From Candidatus Yanofskybacteria bacterium RIFCSPHIGHO2_01_FULL_44_22 (GTDB lineage: Bacteria; Patescibacteriota; Minisyncoccia; 2-02-FULL-40-12; GWA2-44-9): DNA of 64,000 bases. Every line of letters begins with the position of its first letter. Position 1 is the first letter of the stretch. The notes beneath the pieces are model-generated. The model saw nothing but the letters and a program-made list of their open reading frames with translations. It searched no databases and was not told the origin of the DNA. Location: contig MGJJ01000019.1 of NCBI GenBank assembly GCA_001794205.1, positions 1,353 to 65,352 on the forward strand, written 5' to 3'. Made by a program: the position numbers and the translations under genes. Positions 27,886 through 62,524 of the stretch are shown in pieces.

Positions 27886-28859
27886 GCAGAACATTTTTAC
27901 AAACTGCGGAGTGGCTGGATTTTCAGAAATCATTGGGCCGCAAGGTCTGGCATTTTGACGACGGGAAAATAAGGGCCAATATTATCAAGCACGATTTGCC
28001 CTTAAAAAAAAGCTATCTTTATATACCCCACGGGCCGGAAATTATTTTTGACGAAATTAAATCCGGCTTATCAAACGAACTCAAAAATTTTATCGGTTAT
28101 CTCAAAAAAACAGGCAAAGAGGAAAGAGCTATTTTTATAAAAATGGAACCACTTTTGGATATGGTTCCGGAGCTTTTGCATCAAGCCGGCATAAAAATCA
28201 AGAAATCTTCCAAAAAGGTCCAGCCTCAAAAAACAGTGGTGTTGAATCTTGGCTTGGAAGAAAATGAGCTTTTATCGCGAATGCACCACAAAACAAGATA
28301 TAACATCAATCTTGCGGAGAAAAAAGAATTAAAACTAATTGAAAGCGATGATGTAAAATCTTTTTGGAAATTGTTGAAAAAAACGGCGAAGGCCGACCGT
28401 TTTACCACCCATAATTTTGAATATTACGAAGGGTTGCTTAATTTTTTTAAGGATGGTGAAATTACCGCCAAATTATTTATTGTTAATTACGAAAATAAAC
28501 CGATTGCGGGAGCAATAGTTATGCTGTACGGAGACATAGCGTATTATTTGCACGGCGCTTCCGACCGCGATTACCGCAGTTTAATGGCGCCTTATTTTAT
28601 GCATTGGGAGATTATTAAATTATTAAAAGAGACCCCGAAGGAGTTGCTTCGCAACCCTACGGGGCAGGCAAGCGACCAGGGACAAGGGACAAGGTGTAAA
28701 TATTACGATTTTTGGGGAATTGATGCCAACAAATGGCCCGGGGTGACACGATTTAAACTGGGCTGGGGCGGAGAAACGGTTGAATACCCCGGCTCATTTG
28801 ACCTGCCGATTTCCAAAATTTGGTATTGGATATATAAAATAGCCAAAAAAACATTTTAA
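27882..28859 (+). CDS. FemAB-family peptidoglycan interpeptide-bridge aminoacyltransferase (Fem/MurM-like)
   Basis: N-terminal FLQTAEWLDFQKSLGRKVWHF and YLYIPHGPE are typical of PF02388 Fem proteins. It is adjacent to a Mur ligase gene. Confidence 0.65.
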   Translation: MSRTFLQTAEWLDFQKSLGRKVWHFDDGKIRANIIKHDLPLKKSYLYIPHGPEIIFDEIKSGLSNELKNFIGYLKKTGKEERAIFIKMEPLLDMVPELLHQAGIKIKKSSKKVQPQKTVVLNLGLEENELLSRMHHKTRYNINLAEKKELKLIESDDVKSFWKLLKKTAKADRFTTHNFEYYEGLLNFFKDGEITAKLFIVNYENKPIAGAIVMLYGDIAYYLHGASDRDYRSLMAPYFMHWEIIKLLKETPKELLRNPTGQASDQGQGTRCKYYDFWGIDANKWPGVTRFKLGWGGETVEYPGSFDLPISKIWYWIYKIAKKTF

Positions 28860-30163
28860 TGTTCAAAGAAGGTCTATTGGATAAAATTTTATATAAAGTT
28901 AAAAAGCTGATTCCGAAATCGGTTTTTAATTTTTTTGCACCGCTTTATCATGCCGGCTTAGCTTATGCCGGAGCGGTAATTTACGGGTTTCCGTCCCGTA
29001 AAATGAAAGTAATCGGCGTTACGGGAACCAAAGGCAAATCAACGACGGTGTTTTTAATAGCAAAAATTTTGGAAAATTCCGGCAAGAAAGTTGCCGCTAT
29101 CGGTTCGCTCGGATTTAAAATAAAAGAACGGGAATGGCCCAATACTTTGAAAATGACCATGCCGGGCCGTTTTAAATTGCAGAAATTTCTTCGGGAAGCC
29201 CGAAAGGCCGGCTGCAAATATGTCGTGTTGGAAGTCACCTCCGAGGGCATCAAACAGAAAAGACATCTTGGAATTAAATTTGACTGCGCCGTTTTTACGA
29301 ATTTGCATAAGGAACATATAGAAAACCACGGCTCCTTTGAAAATTACAGGAAAGCAAAAGAAGAACTGTTCAGGCTCACCCCAAACAATCATGTATTGAA
29401 TGCCGATGACGCATCGGTTGAACATTTCAGCAAGTACTCCGCCGATAAAAAAATACTCTTTGGAATAAAAGGCGGCGATATGAAAGCAAGCTGCATTGTC
29501 AGCGGCAAAATGGGCGTGGAATTTGAAATTTACGGCACCATGTTTAAAACCAAGCTCTTCGGCGAATTCAATGTTTATAATTGTTTGGCGGCGCTTTCCG
29601 TCGGGGCGGTTTACGGTCTTGATTTGCCGGCGATGAAACCGGCGATTGAAAGAATCGAGGAAATTCCCGGCCGAATGCAGTTTGTGCAAAAAGAGCCGTT
29701 TGCGGTAGTGGTGGATTATGCCCATACGCCGGACTCGCTGGAAAGCGTCTATAAAGCGCTTTCAAGTCCAAAACCTCAAAGGTTGATTTGCGTTTTGGGG
29801 GCGGCGGGAGGCGGGAGGGATAAGTGGAAAAGGCCGGAGTTCGGCAGAATCGCGAAAAAATATTGTGATGAAATAATATTAACAAATGAAGACCCGTACG
29901 ACGAGAACCCGCTTTCAATTTTAAAAGAAATTGAAAGCGGGTTCTCGCAATTACCAATTACCAATTACCAATTACCAAATTATGAAATAATTCTTGACCG
30001 GCGGGAGGCGATAAAAAAGGCGATAAACAACGCGGAAACGGGTGACACGGTGATTATTACCGGCAAAGGTTCGGAAACGTCCATAGCCGTGTCAGGTGGC
30101 AGAAGAATTCCCTGGTCTGACGCTCAAATCGTCCGGGAGCTGATTGACGCAGCCAGCCGATAG
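28859..30163 (+). CDS. Mur ligase family protein (MurE/MurT-like; central ATPase domain without a long N-terminal domain)
   Basis: P-loop KVIGVTGTKGKSTTVFLIA. Mur ligase middle domain (DYAHTPDSL) and C-terminal domain. Confidence 0.8.
   Translation: MFKEGLLDKILYKVKKLIPKSVFNFFAPLYHAGLAYAGAVIYGFPSRKMKVIGVTGTKGKSTTVFLIAKILENSGKKVAAIGSLGFKIKEREWPNTLKMTMPGRFKLQKFLREARKAGCKYVVLEVTSEGIKQKRHLGIKFDCAVFTNLHKEHIENHGSFENYRKAKEELFRLTPNNHVLNADDASVEHFSKYSADKKILFGIKGGDMKASCIVSGKMGVEFEIYGTMFKTKLFGEFNVYNCLAALSVGAVYGLDLPAMKPAIERIEEIPGRMQFVQKEPFAVVVDYAHTPDSLESVYKALSSPKPQRLICVLGAAGGGRDKWKRPEFGRIAKKYCDEIILTNEDPYDENPLSILKEIESGFSQLPITNYQLPNYEIILDRREAIKKAINNAETGDTVIITGKGSETSIAVSGGRRIPWSDAQIVRELIDAASR
29947..29980 (+). 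repeat. Heptanucleotide simple-sequence repeat (caattac)x4 plus partial copy, inside the Mur ligase coding region
   Basis: Read directly. It encodes LPITNYQLPNYEI. The unit length is not a multiple of 3. Confidence 0.85.
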
Positions 30164-37094: not shown

Positions 37095-37145
37095 AAAAGT
37101 CGGTTCTTTGTTTGTCTTGATTTTTTAACATGCTATACTCTTGGA

Positions 37146-37616
37146 ATGGAATACGTCATTCTTCTCAAAACTTTTATTGCGGCGGGGCTGGGGGCGGTTA
37201 TCGGTTTTGAAAGGGAGATGTCCCACAAAGTGGCGGGCTTGAGGACGCATACTTTGGTGTGCATGGCTTCGGCTCTTTTAACCTCGCTTGCCATTGACGG
37301 ATTCATTGAATATCTGGGAACGACGCCTTATGACCCGTCTCGAATCGTTTCCAATATTATTGTCGGCATCGGTTTCATCGGAGCCGGCGCTATTTTACGG
37401 CAGGGTTCGCGGGTGCAGGGGACTACCACCGCCGCCAGTCTTTGGGCCGTTGCCGCTGTCGGCATTACCGTGGGGCTGGGTTTTTTCAGGGAAGCCGCTG
37501 TTGTGGCCGCCGTTATTTTTTTAATTCTGCGTTTTTTGCGGGCGACGGAAGAAAAAATAATAAGCAAACTTAGGCACATGGACGGTGAAGAACCGGATGA
37601 ATCTACTGAAGAATAA
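37146..37616 (+). CDS. MgtC/SapB family membrane protein
   Basis: LKTFIAAGLGAVIGFEREMSHKVAGLRTHTLVCMASAL is typical of the MgtC N-terminal domain. Confidence 0.8.
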   Translation: MEYVILLKTFIAAGLGAVIGFEREMSHKVAGLRTHTLVCMASALLTSLAIDGFIEYLGTTPYDPSRIVSNIIVGIGFIGAGAILRQGSRVQGTTTAASLWAVAAVGITVGLGFFREAAVVAAVIFLILRFLRATEEKIISKLRHMDGEEPDESTEE

Positions 37617-38742
37617 AAATTTTTTACGGGCGACCGCCGCCTTGGTCGGCACAATGGTTGGTGTTGGGATTTTCGGCATTCCTTTTGCTTTTTCAAAAGC
37701 CGGTTTTTGGACCGGTTTTTTATTTTTAATTTTGATAGCCGCTATCACGCTTTTGGCAGATTTAATGTATGGAGAAGTGGTTCTGCGGACTCGGGCCAAA
37801 CACCAATTGGTCGGTTATACCCAGTTTTATCTCGGCCCGTTTTTTAAAAAAGCCCTTTTTTTTACGGCCGCCTTAAGCACTTATTCGGCTCTGTTGGCTT
37901 ACATCATCATTTCCGGCGATTTTATGAATAATGTTTTTTCTTGGGTTTTTTATGTTTCGCCGGAATCTTACAGCATAATTTTTTTTGTCGTCTTGTCCTT
38001 GCTGATTTTAAGAGGTCTTAAAACTGTTTCTTGGGCGGAGCTTTTGCTGACCGCTCTATTTTTTGCGGTTGTCCTGGGCATTTTTTTTCTTAGTTTGGAT
38101 AAACTGAATTTCTCAAATTTTAAAGGCGGCGCTTTGGAATTTTGGTTTTTGCCGTATGGAATTTTATTGTTTGCTTTTGCCGGCCTGCCGGCCGTTCCGC
38201 TCCAAAGGGAAATATTGGGCAGCGGTTCGGAACGGCTTTTTAAAAAATCTATTTTTGCGGCGGTGATTTTGGCGGCGGCGCTGTATTTCGTCTTTGCTTT
38301 TACGGTACTGGGAATTTCCGGGGACACTACCACGCCGGATGCAATTTCGGGGCTTTTTGGTCCGCTGGGCGGCGCCATAGTCTTCTTGGGTTCGGTTTTC
38401 GGTCTTCTGGCCGTCAGTACTTCGTATTTGATGCTTGGCACCGCCTTTACGGAAATTTTTCATTTGGATTTCAAACTCTCAAAAACGGCTTCCTGGTTTT
38501 TGACGGTTTTGCCGCCGTTTGTTCTTTTTTTGGGCGGAATGCGGACATTCATCGATGTTGTGAGTTTGGCCGGTTCGGTCGGCATAGGGCTGGAAGGGGC
38601 GATTTTGGTTTTTCTGTTCATGAAAGCGAAATCAAAAGGCGACCGCGAACCGGAATACAGTCTGCGAGTTCCCAAGTGGCTTTTGTTCGGTTTAATCGGT
38701 ATGTTTATTGCCGGTTCGGTGTATGCCATATTTATTAAGTAA
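37585..38742 (+). CDS. Amino-acid permease-like polytopic membrane protein (aromatic amino acid/Aa_trans-like)
   Basis: ~11 predicted TM segments. The N-terminal TMVGVGIFGIPFAFSKAG is typical of amino acid transporter families. The 5' end overlaps the MgtC gene in another frame. Confidence 0.55.
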   Translation: MKNRMNLLKNKNFLRATAALVGTMVGVGIFGIPFAFSKAGFWTGFLFLILIAAITLLADLMYGEVVLRTRAKHQLVGYTQFYLGPFFKKALFFTAALSTYSALLAYIIISGDFMNNVFSWVFYVSPESYSIIFFVVLSLLILRGLKTVSWAELLLTALFFAVVLGIFFLSLDKLNFSNFKGGALEFWFLPYGILLFAFAGLPAVPLQREILGSGSERLFKKSIFAAVILAAALYFVFAFTVLGISGDTTTPDAISGLFGPLGGAIVFLGSVFGLLAVSTSYLMLGTAFTEIFHLDFKLSKTASWFLTVLPPFVLFLGGMRTFIDVVSLAGSVGIGLEGAILVFLFMKAKSKGDREPEYSLRVPKWLLFGLIGMFIAGSVYAIFIK

Positions 38743-38768
38743 ATTGATGATTGTTAATTGTTATTTGA

Positions 38769-39317
38769 TTGATGACTAAATATCAAAATGTGTCCAAAAC
38801 TCAGGCGGTTCGCAGGGGTTCCATAGCGCCCCGTCGGAAACGCGCTCCAAAAGACGAGCAGGAGTTTGGTTTGGCTGGAAGCGGTTATATTTTATGTTCC
38901 GATTGCAAGAGCGTTTTTTTTGACAAGTCGTGGCATCATCGGCTGGACGAGGACAAGCATTTTTCGGCAGAAAAAAATAAAAACATAAAATTTGCGATTT
39001 GCCCGGCTTGCGATATGCTGAAAAAGAAGGAATATGAGGGAGAGCTGATAATCAGAATCAAGAATCAAGAAGCAAGAATTAAAAAAGACGAAGTGTTAAA
39101 TTCAATTCAGAACTCCGACGAAATGGCGCGGGAAAGAGACCCGATGGACAGGGTGCTATGGACGGAAAATAACGGCGATGAAATCAAAGTTTACACCTCC
39201 GAAAATCAGCTTGCCGTCATAATCGGCAAAAAATTGGACTCATCTTTCCCCGGCGGGAAACTTAAAATAGAACACAGTCACGGCGAGGATTTAATAAGGG
39301 TTTTCTGGGAAAGATAA
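38769..39317 (+). CDS. Hypothetical protein with Cys-pair zinc-ribbon-like motifs
   Basis: CSDCKS...H and CPACD pairs. Otherwise charged, no family recognised. Confidence 0.4.
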   Translation: MMTKYQNVSKTQAVRRGSIAPRRKRAPKDEQEFGLAGSGYILCSDCKSVFFDKSWHHRLDEDKHFSAEKNKNIKFAICPACDMLKKKEYEGELIIRIKNQEARIKKDEVLNSIQNSDEMARERDPMDRVLWTENNGDEIKVYTSENQLAVIIGKKLDSSFPGGKLKIEHSHGEDLIRVFWER

Positions 39318-39420
39318 CCGCTTCGCTTTGCCTCCTCCTGCATTTTCCATGCTTCGAAGCATCCTACAACCTCCTCCGCGCTTCGGAGCGCCGTCTTTTT
39401 TCAATCTGCTCGGCCGTTTA

Positions 39421-39462
39421 GGATAAACAAGGGATTTCTTGCAAGAAATCCCTTGTTTATCC
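39421..39462. repeat. 42-nt perfect palindrome ggataaacaagggatttctt-gcaagaaatcccttgtttatcc nested inside an 11-bp inverted repeat (gccgtcttttt 39390-39400 / aaaaagacggc 39483-39493)
   Basis: Read directly. It lies in a 325-nt noncoding region that also holds a 14-nt palindrome atgcttcgaagcat (39348-39361) and the hairpin gcgcttcggagcgc (39378-39391). Confidence 0.8.
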
Positions 39463-39643
39463 TGGCCTGCGAGAACTTATTCAAAAAGACGGCACATCCT
39501 CCGCCGGTTGATTGTGTAAGTGGCTGATGCTTGAGCGAGAAAGGTCAAACGAATCAATACATCCGAGGCACTTGAGAAGGTGAGGAGGGGGCAAGAAAAT
39601 GGGGCGGAGCGGTGATTGAGTAAAATCATGCTATAATAATTCC

Positions 39644-41035
39644 GTGAATATTTTCAGGAAAATTGAAGAAATTTTATTTTATTTCCTTCTTTTTGCCATT
39701 CCGTTTCAGGCGCGGAAGATATTATGGCAGCAGAATTGGTATTTTAACGAGTGGCAGGCGATATCACTTTATCTTACCGATTTAATTTTACTTGTCTTAT
39801 TTGTATTCTGGGTTTTATTTAATTTTCGCGGTAGGCAAATTTTCAATTTTCAATTTTCAATTTTCAATAAATTTCCCAATTTCCCAATTTCCAAATTTTT
39901 TCAGTCAGATTTTTTTCTTACAAGCTTTCTCATTGTAGCGGCAATTTCAATCAAAAATTCAAGCAATGCGGTCATAAGTTTATTTCAATTTGTTAAATTG
40001 GCCGAGTTTATCGCTTTTTATTTTTATCTCAAGCACTACGCTTTTTTTAGATTCAGTTTTGTCAAAGCCCTTTTAGCTGTTTTTATTGGTGGCGCCGTTC
40101 AGGCCGTTATCGCCATTGGGCAATTTATTAAACAATCTGATTTGGGATTAAGGTGGTTGGGCGAGAGTGCGCTTAGTTCGAATTTGAGCGGCGTGGCTTC
40201 GTTTTTTAACTCCGCCGGCGAAAAAATTATTCGCGCTTATGGCGCGACTCCTCATCCCAATATTTTGGCGGCGTACCTGTTCCTGGCTATTTTTATTTTT
40301 TATTTTTTGCGGCTTTATAAACCGCAAGCTCTTCGTAACCTTAGTGGAGTAGGGCTTATGATTTTCTATAGTGTTTTACTTTTGGGGCTATTTTTCTCAT
40401 TTTCCCGAACCATTATTTTTTTATGGGCGGCCGGTTTTGCGGCGCGAGCGGCGTTGATATGGTTTAAAAAGGATTTCAGAACCGAATTTTGGCGGGATTC
40501 AGCCGTACGGCGCAGGCTTATCTTAATTTTAATCGCGACCATTATTACAATGGGCATCTTTGCAGTCGTCTGGTGGCCGGAAGTTTCCAGCCGGCTTAAA
40601 TTATCGTCAAGCGATGAGGCGGTGCGGTTGAGAATCTTTTACGGCAAAGAAGCTTTGAAATCAGGCTCAAATTGGTTTGGCGTCGGAATCGGTAATTTCG
40701 TCAATTGGCTCTCGGCGCTTGAACCGAATTTGTCCCGCCAGCTTTACCAGCCGGTCCACAATATTTATCTTCTGATTTATTCGGAAACGGGCATGTTGGG
40801 CCTGGCGTCATTTGTTTTATTTTTGATATTTTTAATAAAAGATTTTCTAAATAGAACAAAAATGAAAGAACTTTATAATTATTCGTTTTTGCTGATTTTC
40901 GTTTCAATTTTGATTATCGGTTTCTTTGACCATTTTCTTTTTACGATTCAGCAAGGGAGATTTATCTTTTGGCTGGGAGCGGCTTTATTGACTTCTAATT
41001 TCCAGGAGATTTTGTATTATAGAAAAAATGCCTAA
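39644..41035 (+). CDS. O-antigen ligase/polymerase (Wzy_C) family membrane protein
   Basis: ~11 TM helices and a large periplasmic loop. The N-terminal region contains a low-complexity insert encoded by heptamer repeats. Confidence 0.7.
   Translation: MNIFRKIEEILFYFLLFAIPFQARKILWQQNWYFNEWQAISLYLTDLILLVLFVFWVLFNFRGRQIFNFQFSIFNKFPNFPISKFFQSDFFLTSFLIVAAISIKNSSNAVISLFQFVKLAEFIAFYFYLKHYAFFRFSFVKALLAVFIGGAVQAVIAIGQFIKQSDLGLRWLGESALSSNLSGVASFFNSAGEKIIRAYGATPHPNILAAYLFLAIFIFYFLRLYKPQALRNLSGVGLMIFYSVLLLGLFFSFSRTIIFLWAAGFAARAALIWFKKDFRTEFWRDSAVRRRLILILIATIITMGIFAVVWWPEVSSRLKLSSSDEAVRLRIFYGKEALKSGSNWFGVGIGNFVNWLSALEPNLSRQLYQPVHNIYLLIYSETGMLGLASFVLFLIFLIKDFLNRTKMKELYNYSFLLIFVSILIIGFFDHFLFTIQQGRFIFWLGAALLTSNFQEILYYRKNA
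39836..39893 (+). repeat. Simple-sequence repeats in coding region: (aattttc)x4 followed by (aatttccc)x2
   Basis: Read directly. It encodes QIFNFQFSIFNKFPNFPIS near the N-terminus of the Wzy-like protein. Confidence 0.85.
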
Positions 41036-59399: not shown

Positions 59400-60293
59400 A
59401 TGCGTCCGGCTGACATCAAAACCATACGTGAAAGGAGTGATTTTGGGCGCCGCGCAAGGCGTCCGTTTATTTTTTGGCTCGCGGCAGTCGGAGCTTTGGC
59501 GCTGGCCGCCTCCGCGGTTCATATTCTTTTCTTTGCCGATATCCTGCGGATACAAACAGTTTCAATATCGGAAAACGGCCGGATATCAGAAAGCTCCGAC
59601 GGTAAAGCCATTTTGGCTGCGATAAATTCGGTTCTGGAAGAAAAAAAAATCGGCTTTTTAAAAATTGCGGAAAACATCCTGTTTTTTGACAGGTCGGCAA
59701 CGGAGAAACAATTATCGGAAGACTTGCTCTTTATAAAAAACATAAAAATAAACAAGCTATTTCCGCATGGGTTGGCCGTTGAGTTTTCTAAAAAAATTCC
59801 AATTGGCGTCTGGTGTTTTAAAGATGGCGGCTGCCGGTATTTTGACGCGGCCGGCTCAATGTGGGGAGAAGCAGAAAAATCTTCAGGATTTCTCCTGTTG
59901 TCGGTAGATGATTTGCGAAACGGCGGCAATACCGCAAAAAGCGCCGCGGTCGATGCCGCTTTTTTTATGCCGCTTCTTAAAATTAATGAATATTTGCCGG
60001 CGGTGAACCTTAAAATTAAAAATGCGGAGATTCCGGAAAATTCACTTGGCGAATTTAAGGTTTTTACCGACAAAAATTATTTTCTGTTTTTTGATGCCGG
60101 TTCGACCAACTCACGGCAAGCCGGTTCGACCAACTCACGGCAAGCCGGTTCGACCAACTCACGGCAAGCCGGTTCCGACATCGCCGGCCAGCTGGAAAGT
60201 TTAAAGATGTTGCTGGAAGAGCGGGGAAAAGACACCGGTTTCAACCCTCAATATATAGACTTAAGGATTGGGGGAAGAATTTATGTAAAATGA
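59400..60293 (+). CDS. Membrane-anchored hypothetical protein, possibly FtsQ/DivIB-like (POTRA), carrying an octapeptide tandem repeat
   Basis: Basic N-terminus, single TM (PFIFWLAAVGALALAASAV), beta-rich ectodomain. The FtsQ assignment is weak. Confidence 0.4.
   Translation: MRPADIKTIRERSDFGRRARRPFIFWLAAVGALALAASAVHILFFADILRIQTVSISENGRISESSDGKAILAAINSVLEEKKIGFLKIAENILFFDRSATEKQLSEDLLFIKNIKINKLFPHGLAVEFSKKIPIGVWCFKDGGCRYFDAAGSMWGEAEKSSGFLLLSVDDLRNGGNTAKSAAVDAAFFMPLLKINEYLPAVNLKIKNAEIPENSLGEFKVFTDKNYFLFFDAGSTNSRQAGSTNSRQAGSTNSRQAGSDIAGQLESLKMLLEERGKDTGFNPQYIDLRIGGRIYVK
60107..60189 (+). repeat. 24-nt tandem repeat (ccggttcgaccaactcacggcaag) x3.4, encoding (GSTNSRQA)n in-frame
   Basis: Read directly. 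Three perfect copies plus a partial one. Confidence 0.9.
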
Positions 60294-60715: not shown

Positions 60716-62524
60716 TTAAAGAGAGGGATTGATTTTCCAAACAAAGATAGAATTGCCGATGATGGCGGCGGGCTTGCGGCCCAAAAGCCAAATGTAATTC
60801 TGGTCCGGTTTATTGATTGTTCCCATAAAAAATGTAGCCGAAACGGCGATATGTCCGCCATCGGGATATTCTTTCAAAAAATCCTCTGCGCTTTTATATT
60901 TTCCGGCCGACATCCAGACATATTTGTCTTTTAAGTAATAATACGGGTCGGCCCAGCCGAAATAATCAAAGTTAATTTTAGAAATATTATTCTTATTCAC
61001 CCAATCGCCAAGGCGTTTTAGGTCTTGTCCCCAATCAATATTGGAGTCAACCACATACCAATGTCCTCCGGGAATATGGCCGACTTGTCCTTCCGAAGCC
61101 CAAGACGGGCGAAGGAGGGCAACTTGATTAAAATAGGTGAGATAATATGGATAAACACGGATATTTTCTACGAGGTACCAACCCAAAAGAGTAAAAAGTG
61201 TAAAGTAAAAAGTATAAAGAAATTTCTTGCTTTCAACTTTTAACTTTCGACTTTGGACTATTTTTATAATCTGTCCCGCCACAAGAATATAAACAAACCC
61301 GTAGATGGGCAGAAGATGCCGGACGCCGATGTTAAGATTGGCGCGCAGGCTTGAATACCAATAAATCGCGAGCCACAATATCATGGCGAATTCGTCAAAA
61401 TGATTTTTTATCCAATATCCGGCGCTTTCGATTTTTAACTTTCGATTTTTAACTTTTGCAATAATGGCTGTTACGGCAATGATTACGAATCCCCAGAACG
61501 GCAAGGGCTCCTTCATAAAGTACACGATTGGAAAATATTTTTTCCAGGCGACATTTCTGACTTCGCCGAGAAAATAAGTGTCGTTGCCGCCGATGCTCCG
61601 CTGGGCCACCATCAAAAGACCCAATCCGTATTGAGCGAGGGGGCGCAGGAAAGGTTTATCCGAAGCCCAGACAACCGGAGCGGCAAACGACCTGTTGCCG
61701 TAAGATAAAAGATGATTGGTCGTGTCGTATTTTTGTTTTTCCGGAGGGTAATTGCGGGTATGAAGAGCGTAAACCGGCCAGACAATCAATCCGAAACCGG
61801 CCATAAAAACGGCAGCGGCAAGAAAAATATGTTTGGCCAGATTCAGGATTTTTTCTTTTTCGGTGAGTGCCCACGCCATTGCCAGAATTACAAAAAACGG
61901 CACCAACAGAAACGCCGAAAATTTGGTAAGCTGGGCCGTACCGAAAGCGGCCGCCGCCAGCAAGAAATTTGCTTTCGTTTTGTTTTTTAAAAAGCCGACG
62001 AAGAAATAAGAAGCGAACAGAATTCCGAAAAGCGCGGGAGTATCGGTAGTCACAAAACGGCTGTGAGCGATTACCGTCGGCGAAAAAGAAAATAAAAAAA
62101 GAGCCAGAATGCCCGCCTTACCGCCGTAAAGTTTTGAGGCCCAATAAAATACCAGAATTGCCGCCAGAACAAAAAATAATAACATCGGCATTTTGGCGGC
62201 GCGGACAAGCTTAACGGCGTCATTGCCCGAATTAAATATTAAATTTCTGCCGAAATTCCACTGGCCGTTGATATCCTGCGTCCAGAATTGCGTTTGAAAG
62301 GCCGCCTGATTCAGGTTCAGCGGCAAAAGGGCCAGTCCGGCGAGGTCTTTGGCTAAGGGCGGATGTTCCGGATTCAGGCGATAATCGCCCTTTACCGCAT
62401 AAGAATAGCCGGCGCCGATATGGGGAATTTCATCGACTATCGGCGAATCGTTCCAGACACTATCAACGGCCAAAACTACCGCTGAAACGATAATAATTAT
62501 AGCTACAATATTAAAGCGGGGCAT
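60716..62524 (-). CDS. GT39/GT83-type (ArnT/PMT-like) phospholipid-carrier-dependent glycosyltransferase
   Basis: N-terminal TM followed by the DE-containing loop (VDEIPHIGAGYSYAVKGDYRLNPEHPPLAK). Many TM helices. C-terminal soluble domain. It contains 15-nt tandem insert repeats (KVKNR|KLKIE at 61417-61449). Confidence 0.8.
   Translation of the reverse strand: MPRFNIVAIIIIVSAVVLAVDSVWNDSPIVDEIPHIGAGYSYAVKGDYRLNPEHPPLAKDLAGLALLPLNLNQAAFQTQFWTQDINGQWNFGRNLIFNSGNDAVKLVRAAKMPMLLFFVLAAILVFYWASKLYGGKAGILALFLFSFSPTVIAHSRFVTTDTPALFGILFASYFFVGFLKNKTKANFLLAAAAFGTAQLTKFSAFLLVPFFVILAMAWALTEKEKILNLAKHIFLAAAVFMAGFGLIVWPVYALHTRNYPPEKQKYDTTNHLLSYGNRSFAAPVVWASDKPFLRPLAQYGLGLLMVAQRSIGGNDTYFLGEVRNVAWKKYFPIVYFMKEPLPFWGFVIIAVTAIIAKVKNRKLKIESAGYWIKNHFDEFAMILWLAIYWYSSLRANLNIGVRHLLPIYGFVYILVAGQIIKIVQSRKLKVESKKFLYTFYFTLFTLLGWYLVENIRVYPYYLTYFNQVALLRPSWASEGQVGHIPGGHWYVVDSNIDWGQDLKRLGDWVNKNNISKINFDYFGWADPYYYLKDKYVWMSAGKYKSAEDFLKEYPDGGHIAVSATFFMGTINKPDQNYIWLLGRKPAAIIGNSIFVWKINPSL

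Follow-up and report, generated by a model that had tools for sequence, protein, structure and literature searches.

Among described systems, the closest to the one considered here is neuO of Escherichia coli K1, a gene of the CUS-3 prophage whose 5′ coding region holds an AAGACTC heptanucleotide variable-number tandem repeat of 3–53 copies, with 65.6% of genomes found to be OFF and neighbouring lengths found at 2–5% within one culture (PMC13001214). In a 64-kb stretch of DNA from Candidatus Yanofskybacteria (Patescibacteria/Candidate Phyla Radiation, CPR), the whole of which is referred to here as the window, a gene for a Wzy_C-family, O-antigen-ligase-like membrane protein carries a tract of the same kind, (AATTTTC)x4.43, with an octamer repeat adjacent to it. 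As in NeuO, the 7-nucleotide (nt) unit lies in the N-terminal coding part of a glycan-modifying enzyme, and a full-length protein is made only at copy numbers differing by multiples of three, three units encoding a 7-residue peptide repeat. The tract is a further example of the known coding heptanucleotide repeats. Unlike NeuO, however, which switches at measurable rates, it is found with 4.4 or 1.4 copies and in no OFF allele, its alleles differ by at most one full heptad (NFQFSIF) and so do not form a NeuO-type heptad (poly-psi) domain, and it lies within a loop inside a polytopic membrane protein, the product of a core gene, whereas neuO is prophage cargo. The explanation we favour, and consider probable, is that of a slippage-prone coding repeat in a permissive loop, selected for frame, with the result being a loop-length polymorphism (463 or 456 residues) and no demonstrated ON/OFF switch.

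Heptamer tracts of Haemophilus influenzae are found in the promoters of hmw1A and hmw2A, in a TonB-dependent receptor gene (AACAACC), and inside hmw1A (AATTTTG, 14 copies), with 6–38 copies overall, 13–38 copies at hmw, and out-of-frame states observed (PMC2651432). The window tract resembles these in being a heptamer simple sequence repeat (SSR) at a surface-structure gene, with a copy number that varies by strain (PMC2651432), but whereas the H. influenzae repeats sometimes lie within open reading frames (ORFs) and show frameshifts, the window tract is short and always in frame. As among the 5–11-nt SSRs of other prokaryotes (cyanobacteria, Beggiatoa), period-7 tandem repeats are here in excess over other periods; those SSRs are mostly intergenic and often of one unit such as TAACTGA, whereas here the units are diverse, many lie inside ORFs, and, unlike prokaryote SSRs in general, one orthologous loop is a recurrent hotspot. 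Rickettsia palindromic elements are palindromes inserted in frame into protein-coding genes, and the loop of the orthologues likewise contains in-frame hairpin and palindromic insertions, showing tolerance of arbitrary sequence, although the window tract itself is a tandem repeat and not a palindrome. A search of the literature available to us returned no paper on SSRs in Patescibacteria.

An earlier, sequence-only reading of the window had placed heptamer and octamer repeats at 39836–39893, about 60 codons into a Wzy_C-family gene, and both statements stand, with the coordinates lying within a few bases of those called by Tandem Repeats Finder (TRF), the two tracts occupying codons 65–85 of the ORF (translation QIFNFQFSIFNKFPNFPISKF), and Wzy_C (PF04932) matched with E=6.2e-10 once the N-terminus was trimmed. 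The octamer tract is perfect over 39870–39892, or 2.9 copies. The heptamer tract and (CAATTAC)x4.43 at 29948–29978 are the only perfect repeats in the window with a period of at least 4 and at least 4 copies, with simulations giving an expectation per window of 0.00 (Markov order 1) or 0.00–0.02 (order 3), which excludes chance. Independent ENA, JGI, and NCBI assemblies carry the identical tract at equal copy number, and the existence of the tract is therefore no assembly artefact. That the difference in copy number described below arose by mis-assembly in strain mixtures is hardly credible, as the 31-nt tract is far shorter than the reads and than the k-mer of 141 suggested by contig names, and each allele occurs in several independent assemblies with identical flanks, notwithstanding one contig (L003) that breaks at the tract with a fold-back and a sister-species contig that ends in the loop (L005/L025).

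At the strain level, based on exact protein look-ups, a 90%-identity protein cluster of 15 members comprises a 463-residue form on ~21 contigs (4.4 copies) and a 456-residue form on ~8 contigs (1.4 copies), the latter lacking exactly the peptide NFQFSIF, the product of three AATTTTC units (21 nt, one heptad). Comparison across related strains, proposed with the sequence-only reading, thus reveals a copy number that is not invariant. Over 440 nt, contigs L001 and L002 match the window exactly apart from a 21-nt gap of three heptamers, the placement of which inside the repeat is arbitrary, and eight same-species contigs compared over 2.17 kb differ by eight single-nucleotide polymorphisms (SNPs) and one 21-nt insertion/deletion (indel), and nothing else. 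All four combinations of this indel with the sole parsimony-informative SNP (39924, 66 nt from the tract) exist, showing that either the 21-nt change is recurrent or recombination has occurred within 66 nt, and marking the tract as a mutational hotspot relative to its flanking DNA. The deletion has probably arisen twice. This four-gamete inference is restricted to the tract–SNP pair, which fits within one k-mer if the assemblies used k=141, as record names (k141_...) suggest, and it is weakened by a 153-nt indel ~300 nt upstream of the tract that also reassorts among the same contigs, leaving recombination or mosaic assembly possible at longer range. A protein-based scan of the JGI metagenome collection gave no same-species contig, with a best match of 76%.

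The short allele retains only 10 nt of the heptamer repeat, from which the likely direction of change is long to short and effectively one-way. This argues against easy reversal, since the short allele cannot readily re-expand, and against the observed change being reversible switching. Neither the short allele nor the sister species (L004, AATTTCCA units) differs from the window in its number of octamer units, with one strain carrying a C-to-A change at 39885 in the octamer tract.

When the heptamer count is altered in simulation by one, two, or four units, or the octamer count by one or two, the product ends at 70–122 residues, and to this extent the on/off switch by slippage that the sequence-only reading had proposed is borne out, although the only change seen is the in-frame one of 21 nt. 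None of the nine predicted out-of-frame products (0/9) is found by exact look-up in a collection of ~15 billion proteins, from which the product of a 7.4-copy allele is also absent, and there is neither a frameshift at the tract in any of the 15 cluster members nor an OFF allele on ~29 assembled contigs, which give consensus sequences. Furthermore, at 4.4 heptamer and 2.9–3.6 octamer units the tracts fall under the PhasomeIt cut-off for longer repeat units of at least 5 units (PMC6321876), and the heptamer count is far short of those at proven heptamer switches. The variation between ON and OFF states that had been expected is therefore not what the assembled contigs display.

Several candidates for truncated or OFF alleles were rejected. 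A 345-residue protein (P0129), with the TTG start that a gene caller would choose after a frameshift, comes from a fold-back artefact, the first bases of its contig (L003, 1–50) being the upstream flank in inverted orientation, fused at the tract. A query with the N-terminal 65 residues retrieved only three short proteins in all, none of them a tract frameshift and the result being a weak negative: P0140 is cut by a contig end, P0138 has a junction at codon 43 to unrelated sequence, and P0139 is a short protein without a contig. Programmed frameshifting at the slippery-like AAATTTT was also rejected, as the annotated frame reads straight through.

A contingency locus, at which slippage of the heptamer or octamer tract by a single unit would reversibly turn the Wzy_C enzyme OFF and ON in part of the population and so vary a surface glycan, has some chance of being correct but appears unlikely. 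The 4.4- and 1.4-copy alleles would then be two ON states reached via transient OFF intermediates, with a role, for example, in phage or host interaction. Consistent with this are a unit that is not a multiple of three and lies early in the gene, the truncation that follows a change of one or two units, the instability of the tract among near-identical strains, in which it has probably mutated more than once, and the precedent of NeuO as a heptamer switch in a glycan-modifying enzyme, as well as heptamer arrays at the same site in several species and the frameshifted orthologues described below. Set against these are the lack of any OFF allele on the contigs or among the nine look-ups, compared with the 65.6% of neuO genomes that are OFF, the low copy number, the loss of the repeat in the 1.4-copy allele, and the nature of the gene, which is conserved, apparently single-copy, and core (~230 species hits), overlaps with its end the start of the UDG gene, and lies outside any glycan island.

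We infer slippage as the mechanism, and neutrality of loop length. Under the favoured explanation, replication slippage would produce and remodel the heptamer and octamer coding microsatellite, giving indels of one, two, or three units, of which, the gene being needed, only those that keep the frame would reach appreciable frequency. With a 7-nt unit, the frame would be kept by three units, that is 21 nt or one NFQFSIF heptad. Slippage together with small hairpin and palindromic insertions would have built and rebuilt the loop throughout the clade, with the preference for 7 nt stemming from a genome-wide mutational bias that does not single out surface genes. In principle, the neighbouring tracts of 7-nt and 8-nt units could compensate each other (7+8=15). 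Perfect coding arrays cluster at ~4.3–4.6 copies (two in the window, and those of L040, L060, and L013), as expected if the allowed states are 1.x, 4.x, and 7.x.

The tract falls in the loop between the second and third transmembrane helices (TM2–TM3 loop). The AlphaFold model of the protein, used solely for helix order and loop confidence, consists of ~12 long helices and a loop at residues 322–381, with a mean predicted local distance difference test (pLDDT) score of only 63.6, and the pLDDT falls below 50 at residues 63–86, between helices 36–62 and 89–104. Across 91 distinct orthologues the TM2–TM3 loop contains a mean of 4.25 Lys and Arg residues compared with 1.51 Asp and Glu residues, and is net positive in 86 of the 91, which fits the positive-inside rule. 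Counting helices from the conserved 322–381 loop (R317, R330, H372), which we take to be extracytoplasmic by analogy with WaaL, the TM2–TM3 loop is probably on the cytoplasmic side, and as such would be no target for antigenic variation. The idea that the tract itself varies the cell surface consequently loses its footing, as the encoded loop is Lys/Arg-rich and, by helix parity, probably cytoplasmic rather than surface-exposed.

The loop is hypervariable, ranging from 10 to 74 residues among the 91 orthologues, and in many close orthologues it is absent or unrelated (a 10-residue minimal loop). Autocorrelation of the pooled loop DNA peaks at period 7 (0.352, compared with 0.278 in the remaining gene), followed by period 8, with the codon (period-3) peak missing, whereas the remaining gene peaks at period 3. 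Perfect heptamer runs of at least 2.3 copies occur at 1.30 per kb in the loop, compared with 0.061 per kb in the remainder of the related loci (346 kb in all), a 21-fold difference. The perfect arrays of at least 3 copies in orthologue loops (two in L040, and one each in L060 and L013) are all in frame, and shorter heptamer arrays are found in the loop of about ten further loci. The units differ by species (AATTTTC, AAATTTC, CGAATTA, CAAATTA), with no peptide conserved in common, and the heptamer-bearing species are scattered over several gene-tree clades, among relatives with minimal loops.

These observations also bear on functional length tuning, in which the number of NFQFSIF heptads would modulate activity, stability, or partner binding, with selection keeping both alleles. 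Both alleles do occur in several independent samples and on both SNP backgrounds, and repeat length in NeuO is reported to raise catalytic activity (PMC13001214). However, the loss or replacement of the loop in many close orthologues, the species-specific units with no common peptide, the low model confidence in the loop, and the absence of codon periodicity from its DNA make such tuning improbable.

Insertions and deletions other than heptamers are also found in this loop. In the sister species (70–76% identity) there are three loop alleles (L004 ~620–860; L005/L025 1–200; L021 ~620–760), the first of which contains a number of GC-rich hairpins, among them CCTCGCGGTTTGCCGCGAGG and, within the heptamer array that it interrupts, TCCGCCAACTGGCGGA, the second of which lacks a 27-nt hairpin and is in frame, and the third of which (L021) is frameshifted by an additional deletion of 89 nt, leaving ORFs of 117 and 423 residues. 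In L050 a 34-nt GC-rich unit, found in no other fetched locus, is inserted in the loop as two tandem copies (68 nt, 1684–1748) and shifts the frame; removal of the 68 nt restores the in-frame loop WVINKVKITIQNLKFLKSD, and the downstream ORF of 396 residues has its own ATG. In neither L021 nor L050, therefore, is the frameshift a change in repeat-unit number, which counts against a contingency locus, and in each a long ORF stays intact downstream, with a separate start codon. A ~37-nt perfect palindrome, CTGTGGATAACCGACTT-(3 nt)-AAGTCGGTTATCCACAG, is an inverted pair of the DnaA-box-like TTATCCACA and is inserted in frame and translated as VDNRLRKSVIHR in the TM2–TM3 loop of four loci, with L033 (2397–2431) carrying it in a different loop of the same gene. 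In L042 a second hairpin is nested inside it. The palindrome looks like a small palindromic element colonising coding loops; the window itself contains none. The occurrence of heptamers, hairpins, and tandem and palindromic insertions in one loop indicates that almost any sequence is tolerated there and that indels accumulate.

The preference for 7 nt is not confined to this gene. In the window 13 period-7 TRF arrays with a score of at least 30 are observed compared with 2.3 expected, and 6 compared with 0.13 at a score of at least 36, located both inside and between ORFs, and in the related loci period 7 alone among periods of 5–10 nt attains at least 4 perfect copies. Such enrichment in coding and non-coding DNA points to a general mutational bias and not to a programme of surface variation. 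Heptamers are reported to be the most abundant class among 5–11-nt repeats in most prokaryote genomes (PMC4679880; PMC4692102), and heptanucleotide predominance among longer prokaryote SSRs is attributed to polymerase slippage (PMC4679880; PMC4692102). The second perfect heptamer of the window, in a MurE-like ORF, had been taken together with the Wzy_C tract as a joint sign of surface variation, a pairing that does not survive comparison: no length variant is found among its cluster members, and the protein is identical on 24 contigs, including a strain with the short Wzy_C allele. Two imperfect heptamer arrays 600–900 nt upstream also show no variation among these strains. The amount of change that the local protein context tolerates determines whether variation is observed at a given tract.

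Two further repeat clusters were observed in the window, namely a perfect 24-nt repeat of 3.3 copies (GCCGGTTCGACCAACTCACGGCAA) at 60096–60175, inside ORF 59400..60293 (+), and a cluster of (AAAAAGT)x4.9, (CTTTCAA)x4.3, and a 14-mer (CTTTCGATTTTTAA) of 2.3 copies at 61186–61456, inside ORF 60716..62524 (-).

The array might instead act at the level of DNA or RNA, as a binding site (for example for a cold-shock-type single-strand-binding protein), an internal promoter, or a pause site, with its coding capacity incidental. CspB is able to bind direct repeats of a heptamer, with one protein on each unit (reviewed in PMC4679880), the array read on the minus strand contains TTGAAA hexamers, one of them with a weak promoter-like score, and in L072 (1443–1468) an array of the reverse-complement unit, (ATTGAAA)x3.7, lies 35–55 nt upstream of the orthologue start codon, where it supplies repeated TTGAAA hexamers in the promoter region. 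We nevertheless regard such a role as very improbable, with promoter and terminator scans of the tract region giving weak consensus matches only (the promoter-like match is 9/12, and the scan returned 4 sites compared with 1.6 expected in shuffles), three of the 4.4 units dispensable in ~8 contigs, and the unit sequences varying among species.

Several points weigh against a frame-selected repeat in a permissive loop. Assemblies show only the majority allele of each sample, such that OFF variants making up a few percent would escape notice, and the products of frameshifted genes are less easily recovered from protein collections. The predicted cytoplasmic placement of the loop depends on a model of medium quality together with the positive-inside rule. 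Orthologues of only 40–55% identity still carry similar AT-rich heptamer arrays at this site, which could reflect selection maintaining a mutable tract, and L021 and L050 are frameshifted exactly in this loop, so that inactivation or splitting of the gene occurs in nature. Growth from 1.x to 4.x copies that bypasses out-of-frame intermediates would need multi-unit events, for which this explanation makes no provision. A bolder proposal, which we hold to be quite unlikely, is that the TM2–TM3 loop is a contingency site maintained by selection across Yanofskybacteria, with heptamer arrays regenerated there time and again because OFF or split-protein cells, present at low frequency, escape phage or alter host attachment. 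If so, it would be the first case of SSR-driven phase variation to be described in the CPR. A related possibility is that frameshifts in the loop are not null, with two halves, as in L021 and L050, reassembling in the membrane.

Positions of the repeat tracts, the gene, and related features; those in the window are given in window coordinates
Feature	Position	Strand	Description
Heptamer tract (AATTTTC)x4.43	39838..39868	+	31 nt, perfect; TRF period 7, 4.4 copies, 100% match
Octamer tract, unit AATTTCCC	39870..39898	+	TRF period 8, 3.6 copies, 95% match
21 nt missing in short allele	39838..39858	+	P0122, P0127, P0128, P0130; L001, L002, L109, L110, L111
G/T SNP, S94I	39924	+	Sole parsimony-informative SNP in 2.17 kb
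TM2–TM3 loop coding region	39812..39907	+	Residues 57–88
Wzy_C/O-antigen-ligase-like membrane protein gene	39644..41035	+	ORF, GTG start, 463 residues
Pfam Wzy_C region	40373..40816	+	Residues 244–391; includes conserved loop with invariant R317, R330, H372
Comparison tract (CAATTAC)x4.43	29948..29978	+	In MurE-like ORF 28859..30163
Orthologue loop arrays, L040			(AATTTTC)x4.3 and x3.3
Orthologue loop array, L060			(AAATTTC)x4.6
Orthologue loop array, L013			(CGAATTA)x4.6
Palindrome in TM2–TM3 loop	L027 1024–1058; L029 1692–1726; L035 1659–1693; L039 1656–1690

The 463-residue product is identical to OGN04977.1 of Candidatus Yanofskybacteria. The full-length protein gave no match in hmmscan searches of Pfam and NCBIfam, whereas with the N-terminus trimmed the Wzy_C match scores 39.5 bits against a gathering cut-off of 31.7, and the miss is most likely a filter effect of the low-complexity N-terminal region. 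Wzy_C is matched by 20 of the 21 sequences of alignment A1, that is by all 20 orthologues, the exception being the full-length window protein. We found 436 homologues, with PF04932 precomputed for most of them, and the conserved family motifs include RAYGTTPHPNILA, YQPVHNIYLLIYSETG, and GLFDHFLWTLQQGR; the gene was found in ~230 species-representative genomes. A Foldseek search of the PDB with the medium-confidence model returned FtsW alone, and weakly (E=0.029), with no match to a WaaL or Wzy structure, and a sequence profile search of the PDB with the protein was empty.

The gene is preceded by genes for MgtC, an amino-acid permease, and an NMD3-like protein, and followed by those for UDG, a DedA/VTT protein, and a subtilase, with the UDG start (41028) overlapping the end of the Wzy_C gene by 8 nt; the locus does not form part of a glycan island. 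An extended -10 box (TGCTATAAT, window 39629–39646), which is also conserved in its sister species, finishes 6 nt short of the GTG codon, leaving no space for a Shine-Dalgarno sequence, and the mRNA may accordingly be leaderless. One orthologue (L036, ~1980–1990) has an in-frame stop at profile position 173, which may represent a pseudogene, a sequencing error, or recoding. On a 3858-nt JGI contig, a ~60-nt deletion at window 40230–40310, deduced from the proteins P0134 and P0132, apparently splits the gene into ORFs of 207 and 225 residues, and either the gene can be disrupted away from the repeat or the contig contains an assembly error.

Upstream of the gene, the 153-nt intergenic segment (window 39401–39553) is flanked by TCAAT and contains a hairpin with a 19-bp stem (GGATAAACAAGGGATTTCTTGCAAGAAATCCCTTGTTTATCC). 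The window, L002, L105, and L111 carry this segment, which L001, L107, and L110 lack, and it represents either a polymorphic indel or a small mobile element. Compared with window 37100–39400, L001 (1–2400) has alanyl-tRNA synthetase and Dus genes upstream in place of those for MgtC, the permease, and the NMD3-like protein, with both upstream contexts sharing a terminator-like module of ~60 nt (GCGCTTCGGAGCGC and then a run of T), and the difference being either a rearrangement or an assembly chimera at the repeated terminator. L003 and L105, both short contigs, are broken or rearranged inside the first 70 codons; in L105 (267–494), codons 1–43 are joined to a copy resembling window ~39440–39520 and to unrelated genes.

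On the conservative explanation, the polymorphic tract would be useful for strain typing, and the locus would be of value for annotation in that a low-complexity loop hides the Pfam match; it would also caution that not every non-triplet repeat is a phase switch. If the tract were a contingency locus, it would show the ultra-small, host-dependent bacteria of the CPR to switch their envelope glycans stochastically, which would bear on their dealings with phage and host. If the conservative explanation is true, the locus would offer a clear case from nature of mutation bias working jointly with selection for frame, in which a 7-nt bias quantises coding repeats into three-unit steps, building a hypervariable loop across a CPR lineage.

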